UHGV virus genome: UHGV-0276752
Source: a virus
DNA length: 16,103 nucleotides
Reading direction: 5' to 3' (one strand)
A program made the translations under genes and the position numbers. This document shows positions 4,081-11,699 of the stretch, piece by piece. Under the pieces are notes generated by a model that ran no database searches, had not been told where the DNA came from, and saw only the letters and a program-made list of their open reading frames with translations. Numbering within the stretch: position 1 is the first letter of the stretch; each line of letters opens with the position of its first letter.

Positions 4081-4798
4081 GTTAATAAATGGCAACGCCA
4101 TCAAAATGACAAGCATTGAAATCGCTGAGTTGGTAGAAAGCCGCCATAGCAATGTAAAAGTATCCATAGATAGATTGGTGAAGCGTGGCGTTATCAAGCC
4201 TCCTGCATTGCAGCACACTAACATAATCAATGATTTAGGTGTTATTACCGGGAAGCGTGATTTCTACGTCTTCGAAGGCGAAAAAGGTAAGCGCGATAGC
4301 ATTATTGTCGTTGCCCAGTTGTCGCCGGAATTCACCGCTCGTCTTGTTGACCGCTGGCGAGAGCTTGAAGAAGCTGCGGTTAATATCCCCAAAACGCTAC
4401 CGGAAGCGTTGCGCCTTGCTGCTGATCTTGCTGAGCAGAAAATGCAACTGGAAAACCAGCTCGCAATTGCCGCACCTAAAGTTGAGTTTGCCGATCGAGT
4501 TGGCGAGGCCAGTGGAATTTTGATTGGAAACTTTGCAAAGGTTGTTGGTATTGGTCCAAACAAACTGTTTGCGTGGATGCGCTATCACAAAATCCTTATT
4601 GCTTCAGGTGCCCGGCGCAATGTGCCAATGCAGGAATATATGGAGCGCGGCTATTTCACAGTGAAAGAAACAGCGGTCAACACAAATCACGGAATACAGA
4701 TATCGTTCACTACAAAAATCACCGGACGTGGCCAACAGTGGCTGACCAGAAAGCTGCTCGATAACGGAATGCTGAAAGTAACCGGGGAGGCTGCTTAA
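4073..4798 (+). CDS. Antirepressor-like protein: Rha-like N-terminal domain plus KilA-C/ANT C-terminal domain
   Basis: 241 aa. N-terminal region with TSIEIAELVESRHSNV and DSIIVVAQLSPEFTARLVDRWRELE (Rha/Bro-N-like). C-terminal LPEALRLAADLAEQKMQLENQLAIAAPKVEFADRV is typical of the KilA-C/ANT antirepressor domain. Start overlaps the ninF stop; stop overlaps the next start (TAATG). Confidence 0.7.
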   Translation: MSELINGNAIKMTSIEIAELVESRHSNVKVSIDRLVKRGVIKPPALQHTNIINDLGVITGKRDFYVFEGEKGKRDSIIVVAQLSPEFTARLVDRWRELEEAAVNIPKTLPEALRLAADLAEQKMQLENQLAIAAPKVEFADRVGEASGILIGNFAKVVGIGPNKLFAWMRYHKILIASGARRNVPMQEYMERGYFTVKETAVNTNHGIQISFTTKITGRGQQWLTRKLLDNGMLKVTGEAA

Positions 4799-5088
4799 TG
4801 GCTAACCTACGCAAAGAAGCACGCGGCAGAGAATGCCAGGTACGTATTTACGGCGTATGCAATGGTAATCCTGAAACTACAGTTCTGGCACATTACCGGA
4901 TGGCTGGAATTTGCGGAACGGGGATGAAGCCTGAAGACCTGATCGGCGCATGGGCTTGTAGCGCGTGTCACGATGAAATCGACCGACGCACCCATAACCT
5001 CGACAACAAAGACGCCAGACTTTACCACCTCGAAGGCGTGATCAGGACGCAGGCGATACTGCTGAAGGAGGGGAAGATTAAGTCATGA
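4798..5088 (+). CDS. ybcO: YbcO-like protein (DUF1364), predicted Zn-binding nuclease of lambdoid nin regions
   Basis: MANLRKEARGRECQVRIYGVCNGNPETTVLAHYR...ACSACHDEIDRR closely resembles E. coli DLP12 YbcO as I recall it. Conserved Cys/His pattern. Confidence 0.75.
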   Translation: MANLRKEARGRECQVRIYGVCNGNPETTVLAHYRMAGICGTGMKPEDLIGAWACSACHDEIDRRTHNLDNKDARLYHLEGVIRTQAILLKEGKIKS

Positions 5089-5609
5089 ACGGTAAAAGAT
5101 ATCCAACACAAAAAGAAATCAATGAATTGTATGAATATAATAGCGAAACAGGTTTGTTTATATACAAGAGAAGAGAAAGTGTAAGAGAGTGCTGGAATTC
5201 AACATATGCCGGTAAGATTGCTGGTTCTATAGATGAAAAAGGATACGTTCGTATATCTGTAAATAAAAAAGTTTGTCGAGCTCATAGAATCGCATGGATA
5301 TCCTTTTATGGAAGTGAACCTGATGGGGAAATTGACCACATAAATGGAGTTAAAAGCGATAACAGAATATGCAATTTGCGCGTTGTAGATGATAAACAGA
5401 ACTCAAGGAACAGAAAAAAGCCTATTAATAATCGCTCTGGAGTAATGGGGGTTGCCTACTATAAGAAGAATAAAAAGTGGGGCGCATATATAAACAGTGA
5501 TAATAAAAAGATATTTCTTGGATTATACGATGACATATCTCTAGCCGTTAATGCCAGAAAATTGGCGGAATCACGATTGGGGTATCACCATAATCATGGG
5601 AGAGGATAA
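5085..5609 (+). CDS. HNH homing-type endonuclease with an AP2-like DNA-binding domain
   Basis: 174 aa. HNH core EIDHINGVKSDNRICNLRVV...QNSRNR. C-terminal GVMGVAYYKKNKKWGAYIN...GLYDDISLAVNARKLAESRLGY resembles the AP2/IENR-type domain of phage homing endonucleases. Markedly AT-rich (about 35% GC by eye, versus about 50% in flanks). Confidence 0.8.
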   Translation: MNGKRYPTQKEINELYEYNSETGLFIYKRRESVRECWNSTYAGKIAGSIDEKGYVRISVNKKVCRAHRIAWISFYGSEPDGEIDHINGVKSDNRICNLRVVDDKQNSRNRKKPINNRSGVMGVAYYKKNKKWGAYINSDNKKIFLGLYDDISLAVNARKLAESRLGYHHNHGRG

Positions 5610-5971
5610 ATGGCAGAATACAGATTCACACTTCCGTACCCACCGTCGCTGAACACCTACTGGCGAAGACGGGGAAGCCAATACTACATCAGCGATAAAG
5701 GCCAGAAATACCGAAAAGACGTCCAGCAAATCATCCGCCAACTTAAGTTAGACATTTTCACCAAATCACGACTCCGCATCAAAGTCATCGCAGACGTTCC
5801 AGACTCCCGCCGCCGCGACCTCGACAACATCCTGAAAGGTTTACTCGACTCCCTTATCCACGCCGGATTTGCGGAAGACGACGAGCAATTCGATGACATT
5901 CGCGTAATTCGTGGTGGAAAGTACCAGGCGGAAGGCTTGGAATAAAAATCACCGAACTGGAGAACGCATGA
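5610..5971 (+). pseudogene. rusA: RusA Holliday-junction resolvase with an apparent 1-nt deletion frameshift near 5911-5920
   Basis: Frame 0 (5610-5945) gives a RusA-like N-terminus (TLPYPPSLNTYW, PDSRRRDLDN) but ends ...IRVIRGGKYQAEGLE. A second frame (5912-5971) encodes WWKVPGGRLGIKITELENA, matching the canonical RusA C-terminus (KGGRLELTITEMGNE, from memory). Its stop at 5969-5971 overlaps the ninH ATG (ATGA). Repaired length would be 120 aa, equal to RusA. Confidence 0.6.
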
Positions 5972-6156
5972 ACGCCACAATTCAAACGATACCAGAGCTT
6001 CTTATCCAGACACGAGGCAATCAGACCGAAGTGGCGAGGATGCTTTCCTGCGCAAGAGGAACAGTGCTCAAGTACAACCGAGACAGCAAAGGTGAGCGTC
6101 ACGTAATAGTTAACGGCGTCCTGATGGTCAAACAGGGCAAGAGGGGAAGACGATGA
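5968..6156 (+). CDS. ninH: NinH
   Basis: ATG 5968. MNATIQTIPELLIQTRGNQTEVARMLSCARGTVLKYNRDSKGERHVIVNGVLMV resembles lambda NinH (..KTIPDMLVEAYGNQTEVARRL.CSRGTV.KY.., from memory). HTH-like. Confidence 0.75.
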   Translation: MNATIQTIPELLIQTRGNQTEVARMLSCARGTVLKYNRDSKGERHVIVNGVLMVKQGKRGRR

Positions 6157-6641
6157 GCATAAGAGAACTAAACCTCACCAAAGAACAGCAGGAGTGGCTG
6201 AATGGCTGGCTTGAACTGTGGGGCGCATGGGTTTATTCAGGTCGTCTTGAAAAGCGCATGAGCAGCGTAATAGCGAAGTTCATGGAGAGCGTAGAGCCGG
6301 GAAGAGTTATGACAAGGCCAATGTGCAATGATGATGATGGAATGTTGATTTCTCAGGTCGTCGATTCCGTCATGTACATTGACAAGAAAGCCTTTGGCAT
6401 CCTCCTCAGCTACTACGCCCATGGATCTTCCAAGCACGCCATTGCATCTTACTATCATCGTGTCGCAAGACCTCGCAAGATGTTATGCCGGGGCGGCGGG
6501 CGTATTCAAAAACCATCGCTCGCAACCTGTCGCCGGGAAGTTGACGAAATCCTCAATGCTTCGTTGTTTATGATTTACCCGGTTCTGGATAGTGCGTTTA
6601 AAAACCGGAAACGTGTAGAGAAAATTAAACATGTAGCATAG
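6153..6641 (+). CDS. Q: Late-gene antiterminator Q (P22 gene 23 / phage 82-933W Q type)
   Basis: 162 aa. ELWGAWVYSG motif and overall pattern resemble Q proteins of 82/933W/P22 type. Located between ninH and the late promoter/lysis genes. ATGA overlap with ninH. Confidence 0.8.
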   Translation: MSIRELNLTKEQQEWLNGWLELWGAWVYSGRLEKRMSSVIAKFMESVEPGRVMTRPMCNDDDGMLISQVVDSVMYIDKKAFGILLSYYAHGSSKHAIASYYHRVARPRKMLCRGGGRIQKPSLATCRREVDEILNASLFMIYPVLDSAFKNRKRVEKIKHVA

Positions 6642-6647
6642 AACGTG

Positions 6648-6682
6648 TTGACATCATTGAGCAAATGAGCAACACTATTCGC
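6648..6682 (+). promoter_or_regulatory. Candidate late promoter PR' (with expected qut region) just downstream of Q
   Basis: Perfect -35 hexamer TTGACA at 6648-6653, 7 nt after the Q stop. The -10 is not clear-cut (candidates ACACTA/CACTAT about 17-20 nt downstream). Position is as in lambda. Confidence 0.35.
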
Positions 6683-7012
6683 ATAAGCTGCCGTTAGTGA
6701 CTCTTAAGTTGCAACGGTGGCTTTTTTTGTTTGCACAACAGGTAAGAGCATTGAACCCGCAGACCTCGCGGAATTGGTGAAAGGTGCCGCGCAGTGCTCT
6801 TATCGTTGTGGTGAATGCACAGGCTGATGTGTAAGGGCAAGAATCTTTCGCTGGATTCGGTGTGGCCACGTAGCCCGCTGTAGGCAGTTGCAGCAAACCG
6901 GAGATCAGCACCGGTCGCCACAATCCAAACTGAGCCGTAGCCACTGGCTATCCTGAATTCATCAGTGATAGTTATGCTGCGGCCTTCTACACATGATCTT
7001 CGTGAAAGCGGG

Positions 7013-7050
7013 TGGCATGAGGTTGAGCTAACAACCTCCTGCCGTTTTGC
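7013..7050 (+). terminator. Rho-independent terminator candidate (tR'-like) ending the short late-leader transcript
   Basis: GGCATGAGGTTG (7013-7024), loop AGCTAA, CAACCTCCTGCC (7031-7042): a 12-bp stem with one mismatch, followed by GTTTTG. A weaker hairpin plus T7 run lies at about 6690-6730. Confidence 0.5.
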
Positions 7051-7148
7051 CCGTGCATATCGGTCACGAACAAATCTGATTACTAAACACAGTAGCCTGG
7101 ATTTGTTCTATCAGTAACCGACCATATTCCTAATTAAATAGAGCAAAT

Positions 7149-7162
7149 CCCCTTATTGGGGG
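7149..7162 (+). promoter_or_regulatory. sdi-type stem-loop (CCCC-TTATT-GGGGG) upstream of the S dual start
   Basis: Hairpin 7-20 nt upstream of ATG-AAG-ATG. In lambda this structure sets the S107/S105 initiation ratio. Confidence 0.6.
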
Positions 7163-7168
7163 TAAGAC

Positions 7169-8730: not shown

Positions 8731-9249
8731 ATGAATCATCAATTGGCTAATCTCGATTTTCGGGACATGGTGGTTGTTTCTGGTGATCGCGTGATCACAA
8801 CCTCCCGCAAGGTAGCAGCTTACTTCGACAAGCAGCATCACCACATCATTCAGAAAATCGAAAAGCTAGACTGTTCGGATGAATTTCTAACCAGCAACTT
8901 TTCGCGGGTTACCTATGAACACAAGGGTAATCAGTATGTTGAATATGAAATTTCCAAAGACGGTGCGATGTACATCATCATGTCGTTTACCGGCAAAAAA
9001 GCTGCCGCCATCAAAGAGGCGTTTATCAAAGCATTTAATTGGATGCGTGACAGGCTGATGGAGATGGCTCACTCATACCAAAGAGAGCACAACGAGTTAA
9101 TGCTGGAGTTCATGAAGGAAAAGGATGTTGCCAGTATGTCAGGACGCTTGCTGAACCGCTGGGGCAGGATCAAAAAACCGCAACTCATAGCAAGAATCGA
9201 AAGGCTTGAGCAGCAGGCGCAAATATCGATCCCCGGACTGCCAAAGTGA
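8731..9249 (+). CDS. rha: Phage regulatory protein Rha (P22 orf201 equivalent)
   Basis: 172 aa with the Rha-family signature (VITTSRKVAAYFDKQHHHIIQKIEKL ... MYIIMSFTGKKAAAIKEAFIKAFNWM). Sits between the lysis genes and terminase as in P22. Confidence 0.85.
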   Translation: MNHQLANLDFRDMVVVSGDRVITTSRKVAAYFDKQHHHIIQKIEKLDCSDEFLTSNFSRVTYEHKGNQYVEYEISKDGAMYIIMSFTGKKAAAIKEAFIKAFNWMRDRLMEMAHSYQREHNELMLEFMKEKDVASMSGRLLNRWGRIKKPQLIARIERLEQQAQISIPGLPK

Positions 9250-9846: not shown

Positions 9847-10287
9847 ATGGCGCGCCCAACAAAGTATCAAGAGGCGTATGCCGAACAGGCACGCAAACTG
9901 TGCTTGCTGGGCTACACCGATGCAGAACTTGCTGATTTCTTTGAAGTCAGTGAGTCAACTATTAACAAGTGGAAGCTTGATTATCCTAAGTTTTCGGAGT
10001 CCATAAAAAAGGGTAAGGCCGTCGCTGATGCAGAAGTTAGTGACCGTCTTTATCAACGCGCTATGGGCTTCGTGGCTCCAGACATCGATATTCGTGTTAT
10101 TGAAAACAGAATTGTCGAAACTCCGCTTGAGAAGTATTACCCGCCTGATACAACCGCTGCCATCTTCTGGCTTAAGAATCGACAGAAGGATAAATGGCGC
10201 GACAAGGTTGATCATGAGCTAACAGGCAAAGACGGCGGCGCAATCCAGATTGAAACATCACCGATGAGCACTCTATTCGGAAAATGA
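9847..10287 (+). CDS. Terminase small subunit (Sf6 gp1-like)
   Basis: 146 aa. N-terminal HTH (YTDAELADFFEVSESTINKWK) and C-terminal ...ELTGKDGGAIQIETSPMSTLFGK, which I recall from Sf6-type TerS. Immediately upstream of and overlapping the large terminase (ATGA). Confidence 0.8.
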   Translation: MARPTKYQEAYAEQARKLCLLGYTDAELADFFEVSESTINKWKLDYPKFSESIKKGKAVADAEVSDRLYQRAMGFVAPDIDIRVIENRIVETPLEKYYPPDTTAAIFWLKNRQKDKWRDKVDHELTGKDGGAIQIETSPMSTLFGK

Positions 10288-11699
10288 CCTCGATTAATCC
10301 TATCTTTGAACCGTTCATTGAGGCGCATCGCTACAAAGTCGCCAAAGGCGGTCGAGGTAGCGGTAAGTCATGGGCAATTGCGAGACTGCTTGTTGAAGCG
10401 GCGCGTCGGCAGCCAGTGCGTATTCTCTGCGCTCGTGAACTGCAAAACAGTATCAGCGATTCGGTAATCCGGTTGCTTGAAGATACCATCGAGCGTGAAG
10501 GATATTCGGCTGAGTTTGAAATTCAGCGTTCAATGATTCGTCATCTCGGAACGAATGCTGAGTTCATGTTCTACGGCATCAAAAACAACCCGACGAAGAT
10601 TAAATCGCTAGAAGGCATTGATATCTGCTGGGTGGAAGAAGCGGAAGCGGTAACGAAGGAATCATGGGATATCCTGATACCAACCATCCGTAAGCCGTTC
10701 TCTGAAATATGGGTGAGCTTTAACCCGAAGAACATACTCGACGATACCTATCAGCGGTTCGTCGTAAATCCTCCTGATGATATTTGTCTGCTGACGGTGA
10801 ACTACACCGACAATCCGCACTTTCCTGAAGTTCTCCGTCTGGAGATGGAAGAGTGTAAGCGCAGAAACCCGACACTGTATCGTCACATCTGGCTTGGTGA
10901 GCCAGTAAGCGCAAGTGATATGGCAATCATCAAACGTGAATGGCTTGAAGCCGCAACCGATGCGCACAAGAAACTCGGATGGAAAGCGAAAGGCGCTGTT
11001 GTCTCTGCGCATGACCCGTCAGATACAGGACCAGATGCTAAAGGTTATGCATCGCGTCACGGTTCGGTAGTTAAGCGCATTGCCGAAGGTCTGCTGATGG
11101 ACATCAACGAGGGTGCTGACTGGGCTACTTCGCTGGCGATTGAAGACGGTGCTGACCATTACCTGTGGGATGGTGATGGTGTTGGTGCCGGGCTACGCAG
11201 ACAGACAACGGAAGCGTTCTCCGGCAAGAAAATCACCGCCACGATGTTCAAGGGCAGCGAATCGCCATTCGATGAAGATGCACCGTATCAGGCCGGAGCA
11301 TGGGCCGATGAAGTCGTACAGGGCGACAACGTTCGCACTATTGGCGATGTGTTCCGTAATAAGCGAGCGCAATTCTATTACGCGCTGGCTGACAGGCTGT
11401 ATCTGACATATCGGGCGGTTGTTCACGGTGAGTATGCAGACCCCGACGACATGCTGAGTTTCGACAAAGAAGCGATAGGCGAGAAGATGCTGGAGAAGCT
11501 GTTTGCAGAACTGACGCAGATTCAGCGCAAATTCAATAACAACGGGAAGCTGGAGCTAATGACTAAGGTCGAAATGAAGCAGAAGCTCGGTATTCCATCT
11601 CCTAACCTGGCTGATGCGCTGATGATGTGTATGCATTGCCCGGAGTCGGCTGCGCAACCCGACTATTCCAGTTACTCAATTCCTTGTGGTGTAGGTTGA
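10284..11699 (+). CDS. Terminase large subunit (Sf6 gp2-like, ATPase plus nuclease)
   Basis: 471 aa. Walker A GGRGSGKS, Walker B-like DICWVEE, C-terminal RNase H-like nuclease region. N-terminal sequence matches Sf6 gp2 as I recall it. Confidence 0.9.
   Translation: MTSINPIFEPFIEAHRYKVAKGGRGSGKSWAIARLLVEAARRQPVRILCARELQNSISDSVIRLLEDTIEREGYSAEFEIQRSMIRHLGTNAEFMFYGIKNNPTKIKSLEGIDICWVEEAEAVTKESWDILIPTIRKPFSEIWVSFNPKNILDDTYQRFVVNPPDDICLLTVNYTDNPHFPEVLRLEMEECKRRNPTLYRHIWLGEPVSASDMAIIKREWLEAATDAHKKLGWKAKGAVVSAHDPSDTGPDAKGYASRHGSVVKRIAEGLLMDINEGADWATSLAIEDGADHYLWDGDGVGAGLRRQTTEAFSGKKITATMFKGSESPFDEDAPYQAGAWADEVVQGDNVRTIGDVFRNKRAQFYYALADRLYLTYRAVVHGEYADPDDMLSFDKEAIGEKMLEKLFAELTQIQRKFNNNGKLELMTKVEMKQKLGIPSPNLADALMMCMHCPESAAQPDYSSYSIPCGVG

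Follow-up and report, generated by a model that had tools for sequence, protein, structure and literature searches.

Lambdoid RusA Holliday-junction resolvases, which include E. coli DLP12 RusA (1Q8R/2H8C/2H8E) and the proteins of phage 82, HK97 (gp67) and HK620 (rus), are encoded in the nin region, where their genes precede ninH and Q and show an ATGA stop/start overlap. Host resolvases can replace the phage resolvase. The RusA fold consists of a four-stranded mixed sheet with two flanking helices, and the dimer interface is formed sheet-to-sheet (PMC1636454). Phages lacking the nin region still form plaques, while Q is essential and polarity-sensitive (PMC10695390; PMC8022706). A frameshifted family member is already on record in MS14385, an E. 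coli blood isolate from Australia, where RefSeq/PGAP labels the gene (EW040_RS09500; NZ_LR130555.1 1972833-1973194, L138) 'RusA family crossover junction endodeoxyribonuclease, frameshifted'. This rusA is the sole pseudogene among about 60 genes of a complete P22-like prophage of about 38 kb, which adjoins sbcB and extends from integrase to tailspike.

The rusA locus described here lies in the window, i.e. the whole 16,103-nucleotide stretch of virus genome UHGV-0276752 that was analysed. The window covers the cII-O-P-nin-Q-lysis-terminase-portal-scaffold-coat stretch of a P22-like (HK620/CUS-3-type) temperate E. coli phage, and matches many E. coli prophages at 96-98% identity in mosaic patches. 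No identical copy of it was found in phages, E. coli complete genomes, GTDB representatives, IMG/VR or JGI metagenome contigs; the closest records are two ENA metagenome contigs, L136 and L137. The gene occupies the lambdoid nin slot directly upstream of ninH and Q, and its product is colinear with the lambdoid RusA resolvases over residues 1-102. Unlike in these proteins, the frame breaks after Gly102, and residues 103-120, including the fourth β-strand, are not made in frame. The lesion is of an already annotated kind, flagged as 'frameshifted' by RefSeq in a sister phage: the same T is missing in MS14385, and the product is likewise 111 residues long. The MS14385 phage is distinct from that of the window: it has no HNH gene upstream of rusA, its rusA haplotype (15 differences in the first 45 nt and 4-5 later), Q allele and terminase are different, and its Q is followed by tRNA genes. 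The features of the locus are as follows.

4798-5088: YbcO/DUF1364 gene
5085-5609, + strand: HNH_3 endonuclease gene (PF13392, 60.6 bits), marking the haplotype with the window's rusA allele
5610-5945, + strand: truncated rusA frame; residues 1-102 are native RusA and 103-111 (GKYQAEGLE, 9 residues) are out of frame
5915-5921, + strand: U_GGA_AAG made by the deletion, in frame; the only Z_ZZN motif in the 5897-5945 rescue interval
5916-5917, + strand: site of the single-T deletion (alignment column 308); intact alleles read GTG-T-GAAAG
5918-5971, + strand: stranded rusA 3' end in the -1 frame; codons K104-A120 (17) plus TGA, with protein identical to intact alleles
5924-5940, + strand: 6-bp RNA hairpin (CCAGGC/GCUUGG, 5-nt loop) that begins 2 nt past AAG and is shared by intact alleles
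5943-5945, + strand: premature TAA that ends the shifted frame; the ninH ATG follows 22 nt downstream
5959-5962, + strand: GGAG Shine-Dalgarno for ninH, 5 nt before the ATG, as read from the sequence
5968-6156, + strand: ninH, intact, 62 aa (PF06322, 85.7 bits, profile 1-60/60)
6153-6641, + strand: antiterminator Q, intact, 162 aa (PF06530 on the identical L136/L137 gene)

The original prediction, made by reading the window alone, held that the frame from 5610 is RusA to residue ~100 and ends at 5945. This was borne out, as the 111-aa ORF on the + strand (5610-5945, terminal residues ...IRVIRGGKYQAEGLE followed by the stop) is native over residues 1-102 and continues with nine out-of-frame residues. 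The adjacent frame at 5912-5971, which translates as WWKVPGGRLGIKITELENA followed by a stop, had been put forward as the canonical C-terminus. This is correct from K104 onwards (5918-5971) and incorrect for the 'WW' of 'WWKVPGG', since the native RusA C-terminus reads ...RGVKVPGGRLGIKITELENA and contains no such pair. The TGA of the C-terminal frame (5969-5971) does overlap the ninH ATG (5968-5970), as had been proposed.

Alignment with the intact alleles of strain GPEC172, HK620 and mEpX1 shows CGTGGTGTGAAAG in the relatives and CGTGGTGGAAAG in the window, with exactly one base missing. A 461-nt query around rusA correspondingly matches 462 nt in almost every relative. The lesion had been described as a single-base deletion in a GTGGTGG run. 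A single base has indeed been lost; it is a T from GTGTG, and the run is itself a product of the deletion, as the intact context (GTGGTGTG) contains no pre-existing slippery run. Re-insertion of the T restores a 120-aa RusA, as anticipated, that is 100% identical to WP_001549462.1 (P0001), a protein present on 656 contigs, and that is colinear with E. coli RusA 1Q8R over residues 3-119. The Pfam PF05866 and allele comparisons suggested with the prediction show one alignment gap and a RusA match that covers profile positions 1-109/124 in the truncated ORF (59 bits; gathering score 22.8) and 1-123/124 in the repaired protein. The frameshift in rusA is confirmed, far beyond chance. A single indel separates the gene from colinear intact orthologues, downstream coding is kept in another frame, and the lesion is found in independent data, confined to particular lineages (two clonal). 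All remaining genes of the window are clean, abutting ORFs with tight nin-type overlaps, and promoter/terminator, Rfam and tRNA scans of the window or the region returned nothing relevant.

A 31-mer spanning the deletion has no match in GTDB representative genomes or the JGI metagenome collection, and a single match in IMG/VR (L005, 2246-2276). The corresponding intact 32-mer occurs on at least 120 IMG/VR viral contigs, some of them in the same JGI data set. L005, at first expected to be the source of the window, turned out to be a different phage with no HNH gene and 90-97% identity in patches only; it carries the same T deletion. A protein look-up recovered the exact 111-aa window product from two ENA gut-metagenome contigs, L136 and L137. 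Relative to the window, these carry 2-3 SNPs across 9.1 and 3.9 kb respectively. The L005-type 111-aa product, hereafter lineage 2, is present on at least 15 contigs, drawn from an NCBI isolate (GCA_006233075.1), two JGI data sets, ENA metagenomes and five Logan-assembled SRA runs. All lineage-2 copies that were fetched carry the deletion (11/11), and intact alleles assembled normally from the same JGI data set as the lineage-2 deletion. Among E. coli complete genomes, roughly 890-940 have the intact form and one, MS14385, has the deletion. The context of the lost T contains no homopolymer.

The region upstream of rusA also distinguishes the two haplotypes. The HNH_3 gene is inserted exactly between ybcO/DUF1364 and rusA, through an ATGA overlap at 5085-5088 and a TAA that abuts the rusA ATG (5607-5612); in HNH-less relatives, ybcO is joined directly to rusA by ATGA. 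Haplotypes with and without the HNH gene show 15 differences in the first 45 nt of rusA, and the HNH_3 gene has the look of a free-standing homing-endonuclease cassette whose flank was co-converted. Downstream, the Q-to-holin spacer (6642-7168) contains neither a tRNA (ARAGORN) nor an Rfam family. At this position lineage 2 carries tRNA-Asn and tRNA-Thr, and window positions 6734-6924 have no counterpart there. Comparison of the window with the lineage-2 contig L126 revealed further mosaicism (8731-9249 and 9847-11699): the window has a Terminase_3-type large terminase, the 162-aa Q and, following the lysis genes, a Rha-family gene, against a Terminase_6-type terminase and a 172-aa Q in lineage 2.

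To describe the consequence for the protein, the truncated product was compared with known RusA structures and sequences. Alignment to 1Q8R places the catalytic residues D70, D72, K76 and D91 (E. coli numbering) upstream of the frameshift, and all are kept; the full set of invariant functional residues (R68, R69, D70, D72, N73, K76 and D91) likewise precedes the break. The lost segment, ...K..GG...IKITELE, is conserved in E. coli, Cedecea, Atlantibacter, Enterobacter and Salmonella, and natural RusA C-termini across genera all keep ...RG.K..GG...IKITELE. A conserved natural ...GGKYQAEGLE end, which would have argued against a frameshift, was found in none of the homologues examined. Apparent cases of a naturally short C-terminus were discarded, as several homologues with '100% query coverage' proved on inspection to end in the usual ...KITELE or to carry other frameshifts.

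An AlphaFold model of the intact allele (pLDDT 87) contains strands 3-9, 54-62, 94-101 and 109-117 and helices 29-44 and 71-84, and superposes on 1Q8R/2H8E with a TM score of 0.93-0.95 and an rmsd of about 1.1 Å. In the model of the window product, strand 109-117 is absent, residues 3-9 are not assigned as a strand, and the tail has a pLDDT of about 63. The strand pairing is deduced from two DSSP strings, and AlphaFold is no stability predictor. On these models, the zero-frame product would not form the complete four-stranded RusA fold. Loss of the last core strand (109-117), a quarter of the sheet, most likely leads to a misfolded, inactive or non-dimerising product, as judged from the models. 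As D70, D72, K76 and D91 are all retained, it is possible that the 111-aa product has some residual Holliday-junction cleavage activity.

The distribution of the deletion was examined in the 132 rusA copies fetched, 118 of which are 363 nt and 14 are 362 nt long. In 13 of the 14 shorter copies the gap is at column 308. These 132 copies represent 107 distinct sequences, and the column-308 gap occurs in three only (that of the window plus L136, that of L137, and that of lineage 2). The lineage-2 allele differs from the intact allele L124 in nothing but the missing T, and over 5.8 kb L124 is 99.85% identical to the lineage-2 carriers. Adding the T to the window allele yields a common intact protein. 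Between them, the two deleted alleles show 15 differences within the first 45 nt and 4-5 further on; those closest to the deletion on either side are at columns 240 and 325. Hence, either the same T was lost twice, or the deletion may have moved between phages by a conversion tract of less than about 85 nt. No direct repeat, quasi-palindrome or homopolymer that might have caused a hotspot was found at the deletion site, and the only mechanistic idea left for the loss of the T is misalignment across G-T-G. Broken rusA alleles in the databases include frameshifts after about residues 76, 99, 105, 113 and 118, as well as stop-loss extensions. Given many independent decay events in rusA, coincidence at the same site is possible, and the many other broken alleles are consistent with relaxed selection.

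Other disrupted forms of the gene were observed alongside. E. coli NRZ105822 (L002, NZ_OZ501607.1 2057845-2058206) has an unrelated rusA frameshift, a C lost at column 69, on the HNH-containing haplotype, and this gene is also labelled 'frameshifted' by PGAP. Further broken alleles are P0016, P0017, P0019, P0022, P0024 and P0057. The +1 frame over the rusA 3' end (window 5911-6156) is open and continuous with ninH, and RusA-NinH fusions resulting from other frameshifts or deletions at the same spot are represented by P0018 (181 aa, 60 member sequences), P0020 and P0107.

The deletion also creates a sequence, U_GGA_AAG, at which a ribosome might return to the C-terminal frame, the nearest upstream stop in that frame being at 5894. 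A -1 slip of tRNA-Lys from AAG to AAA is predicted to give a 120-aa RusA that differs solely at V103G. The tetramer A_AAG is the most shift-prone and a classic minimal -1 site in E. coli, and CGA_AAG-type sites work without canonical P-site re-pairing (PMC5009743; PMC4066793). Compensation of nearby deletions has precedent (PMC5009743; PMC10861913), and some E. coli reporters show suppression of single-base deletions at about 1-10% (PMC10861913). As in Bacillus cdd, IS1222 (A_AAG / CGA_AAG) and the herpesvirus TK 'savior' indels, a one-base deletion adjoins A_AAG in the window; unlike these compensatory frameshifts, the rusA site has no heptamer, no correctly spaced stimulator and no conservation. 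U_GGA_AAG departs from the slippery heptamer X_XXY_YYZ, conforming in the A-site tetramer A_AAG only. Neither a stimulator 5-9 nt downstream nor an upstream Shine-Dalgarno-like element was found. The sole structure considered as a downstream stimulator, the 6-bp hairpin, was rejected given its 2-nt spacing, and the wider RNA fold is no better than shuffles (z -0.87). The two-frame arrangement is unconserved, as the homologues are single-frame proteins of 117-126 aa. Tetramers without a stimulator reach 0.147% against a background of 0.112%, and A_AA.G reaches 5.6% solely with the IS3 pseudoknot (PMC4066793). With no usable stimulator, any rescue should be near background. Background-level rescue by -1 slippage is plausible, whereas a programmed or selected frameshift mechanism is not supported; the lower rank originally given to programmed slippage was appropriate, its defining features being absent.

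The observations can be read in several ways. Single-base indels are the commonest kind of assembly error, and the lack of an exact copy of the window in the phage, E. coli complete-genome, GTDB-representative and IMG/VR collections might point to a sequencing or assembly indel in a phage whose true rusA is intact, an option listed in the original prediction. Yet two further assemblies of the window's phage and at least 15 contigs of a second phage show the same deletion, its carriers span projects and assemblers and include an isolate genome as well as a finished genome, and all 11 fetched lineage-2 copies are deleted while intact alleles are fine in the same data sets, at a site that is not homopolymeric. 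Since the deletion turns up again in independent assemblies that stem from a variety of projects and assemblers, it appears to be real, and an artefact is very unlikely; that the phage itself has an intact gene is highly improbable. This recurrence favours genuine inactivation among the three options originally listed. A second reading takes the 111-aa product to be functional in its own right, as a resolvase without its last strand or as a DNA-binding or dominant-negative variant. Every invariant catalytic and DNA-binding residue lies upstream of residue 102, the Pfam score is still 59 bits, and the allele persists in at least two circulating phages. The lost strand is nonetheless conserved across genera and is one of four in the dimer-interface sheet, its loss also unpairs strand 1 in the model, and no natural member ends near residues 102-111 other than obvious fragments or frameshifts. 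We consider a functional short product unlikely.

A leaky or 'savior' frameshift, supplying low levels of 120-aa RusA(V103G) and leaving the resolvase attenuated rather than dead, would draw on the shift-prone A_AAG and its CGA_AAG-type precedents (PMC5009743, PMC4066793), on the suppression of about 1-10% in some E. coli reporters (PMC10861913), on U_GGA_AAG holding the sole Z_ZZN motif in 5897-5945, and on a slip product that differs from the intact protein at V103G alone; an identical deletion on two haplotypes would moreover fit selection for the lesion. This is countered by stimulator-less tetramers being barely over background (0.147% versus 0.112%), by a hairpin that at 2 nt lies nearer to the site than a classical stimulator would and that intact alleles have as well, by a first heptamer base that is U and not G, and by both carrier lineages being young and clonal, with no sign of long-term maintenance. 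Such leaky expression is quite improbable. A stronger version, in which the same T was selectively lost independently in two lineages because the lesion is non-polar on Q and -1 slippage to RusA(V103G) attenuates a potent nuclease, is decidedly improbable. That the same T is missing on two haplotypes does count, at first sight, against random neutral decay, under which it is unexpected. Weighing these points, we conclude with good confidence that rusA, a non-essential accessory gene, is here a recent and ordinary frameshift pseudogene, carried by a P22-like phage that is intact in other respects.

Under this pseudogene interpretation, one T was lost from rusA of a P22-like temperate phage, and translation would proceed normally to Gly102, read nine wrong codons and stop at the TAA at 5943-5945. 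The product would keep the catalytic acidic residues and Lys76 and be without strand 109-117, which is predicted to pair with strand 1 in the dimer-interface sheet. The resulting misfolded or inactive RusA would be tolerated because plaque formation does not require the nin-region genes and resolvases of the host can take over. As the new stop is 22 nt before ninH and ninH has its own GGAG, little polarity on ninH and Q is to be expected: the GGAG at 5959-5962 should allow ninH to initiate uncoupled from rusA, and expression of ninH and of the essential Q is expected to be almost unaffected, with negligible polarity.

The gene is properly annotated as a frameshifted rusA pseudogene rather than as a short resolvase of a new kind. 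The absence of the same base from two different phages is a small curiosity and, if this recurrence was selected, it would make a small case study in leaky frameshift alleles. The finding matters little beyond annotation, and offers a clean natural example of how easily a nin-region resolvase is lost. Carrier strains such as MS14385 are ready material for work on the need of a P22-like phage for its own junction resolvase.
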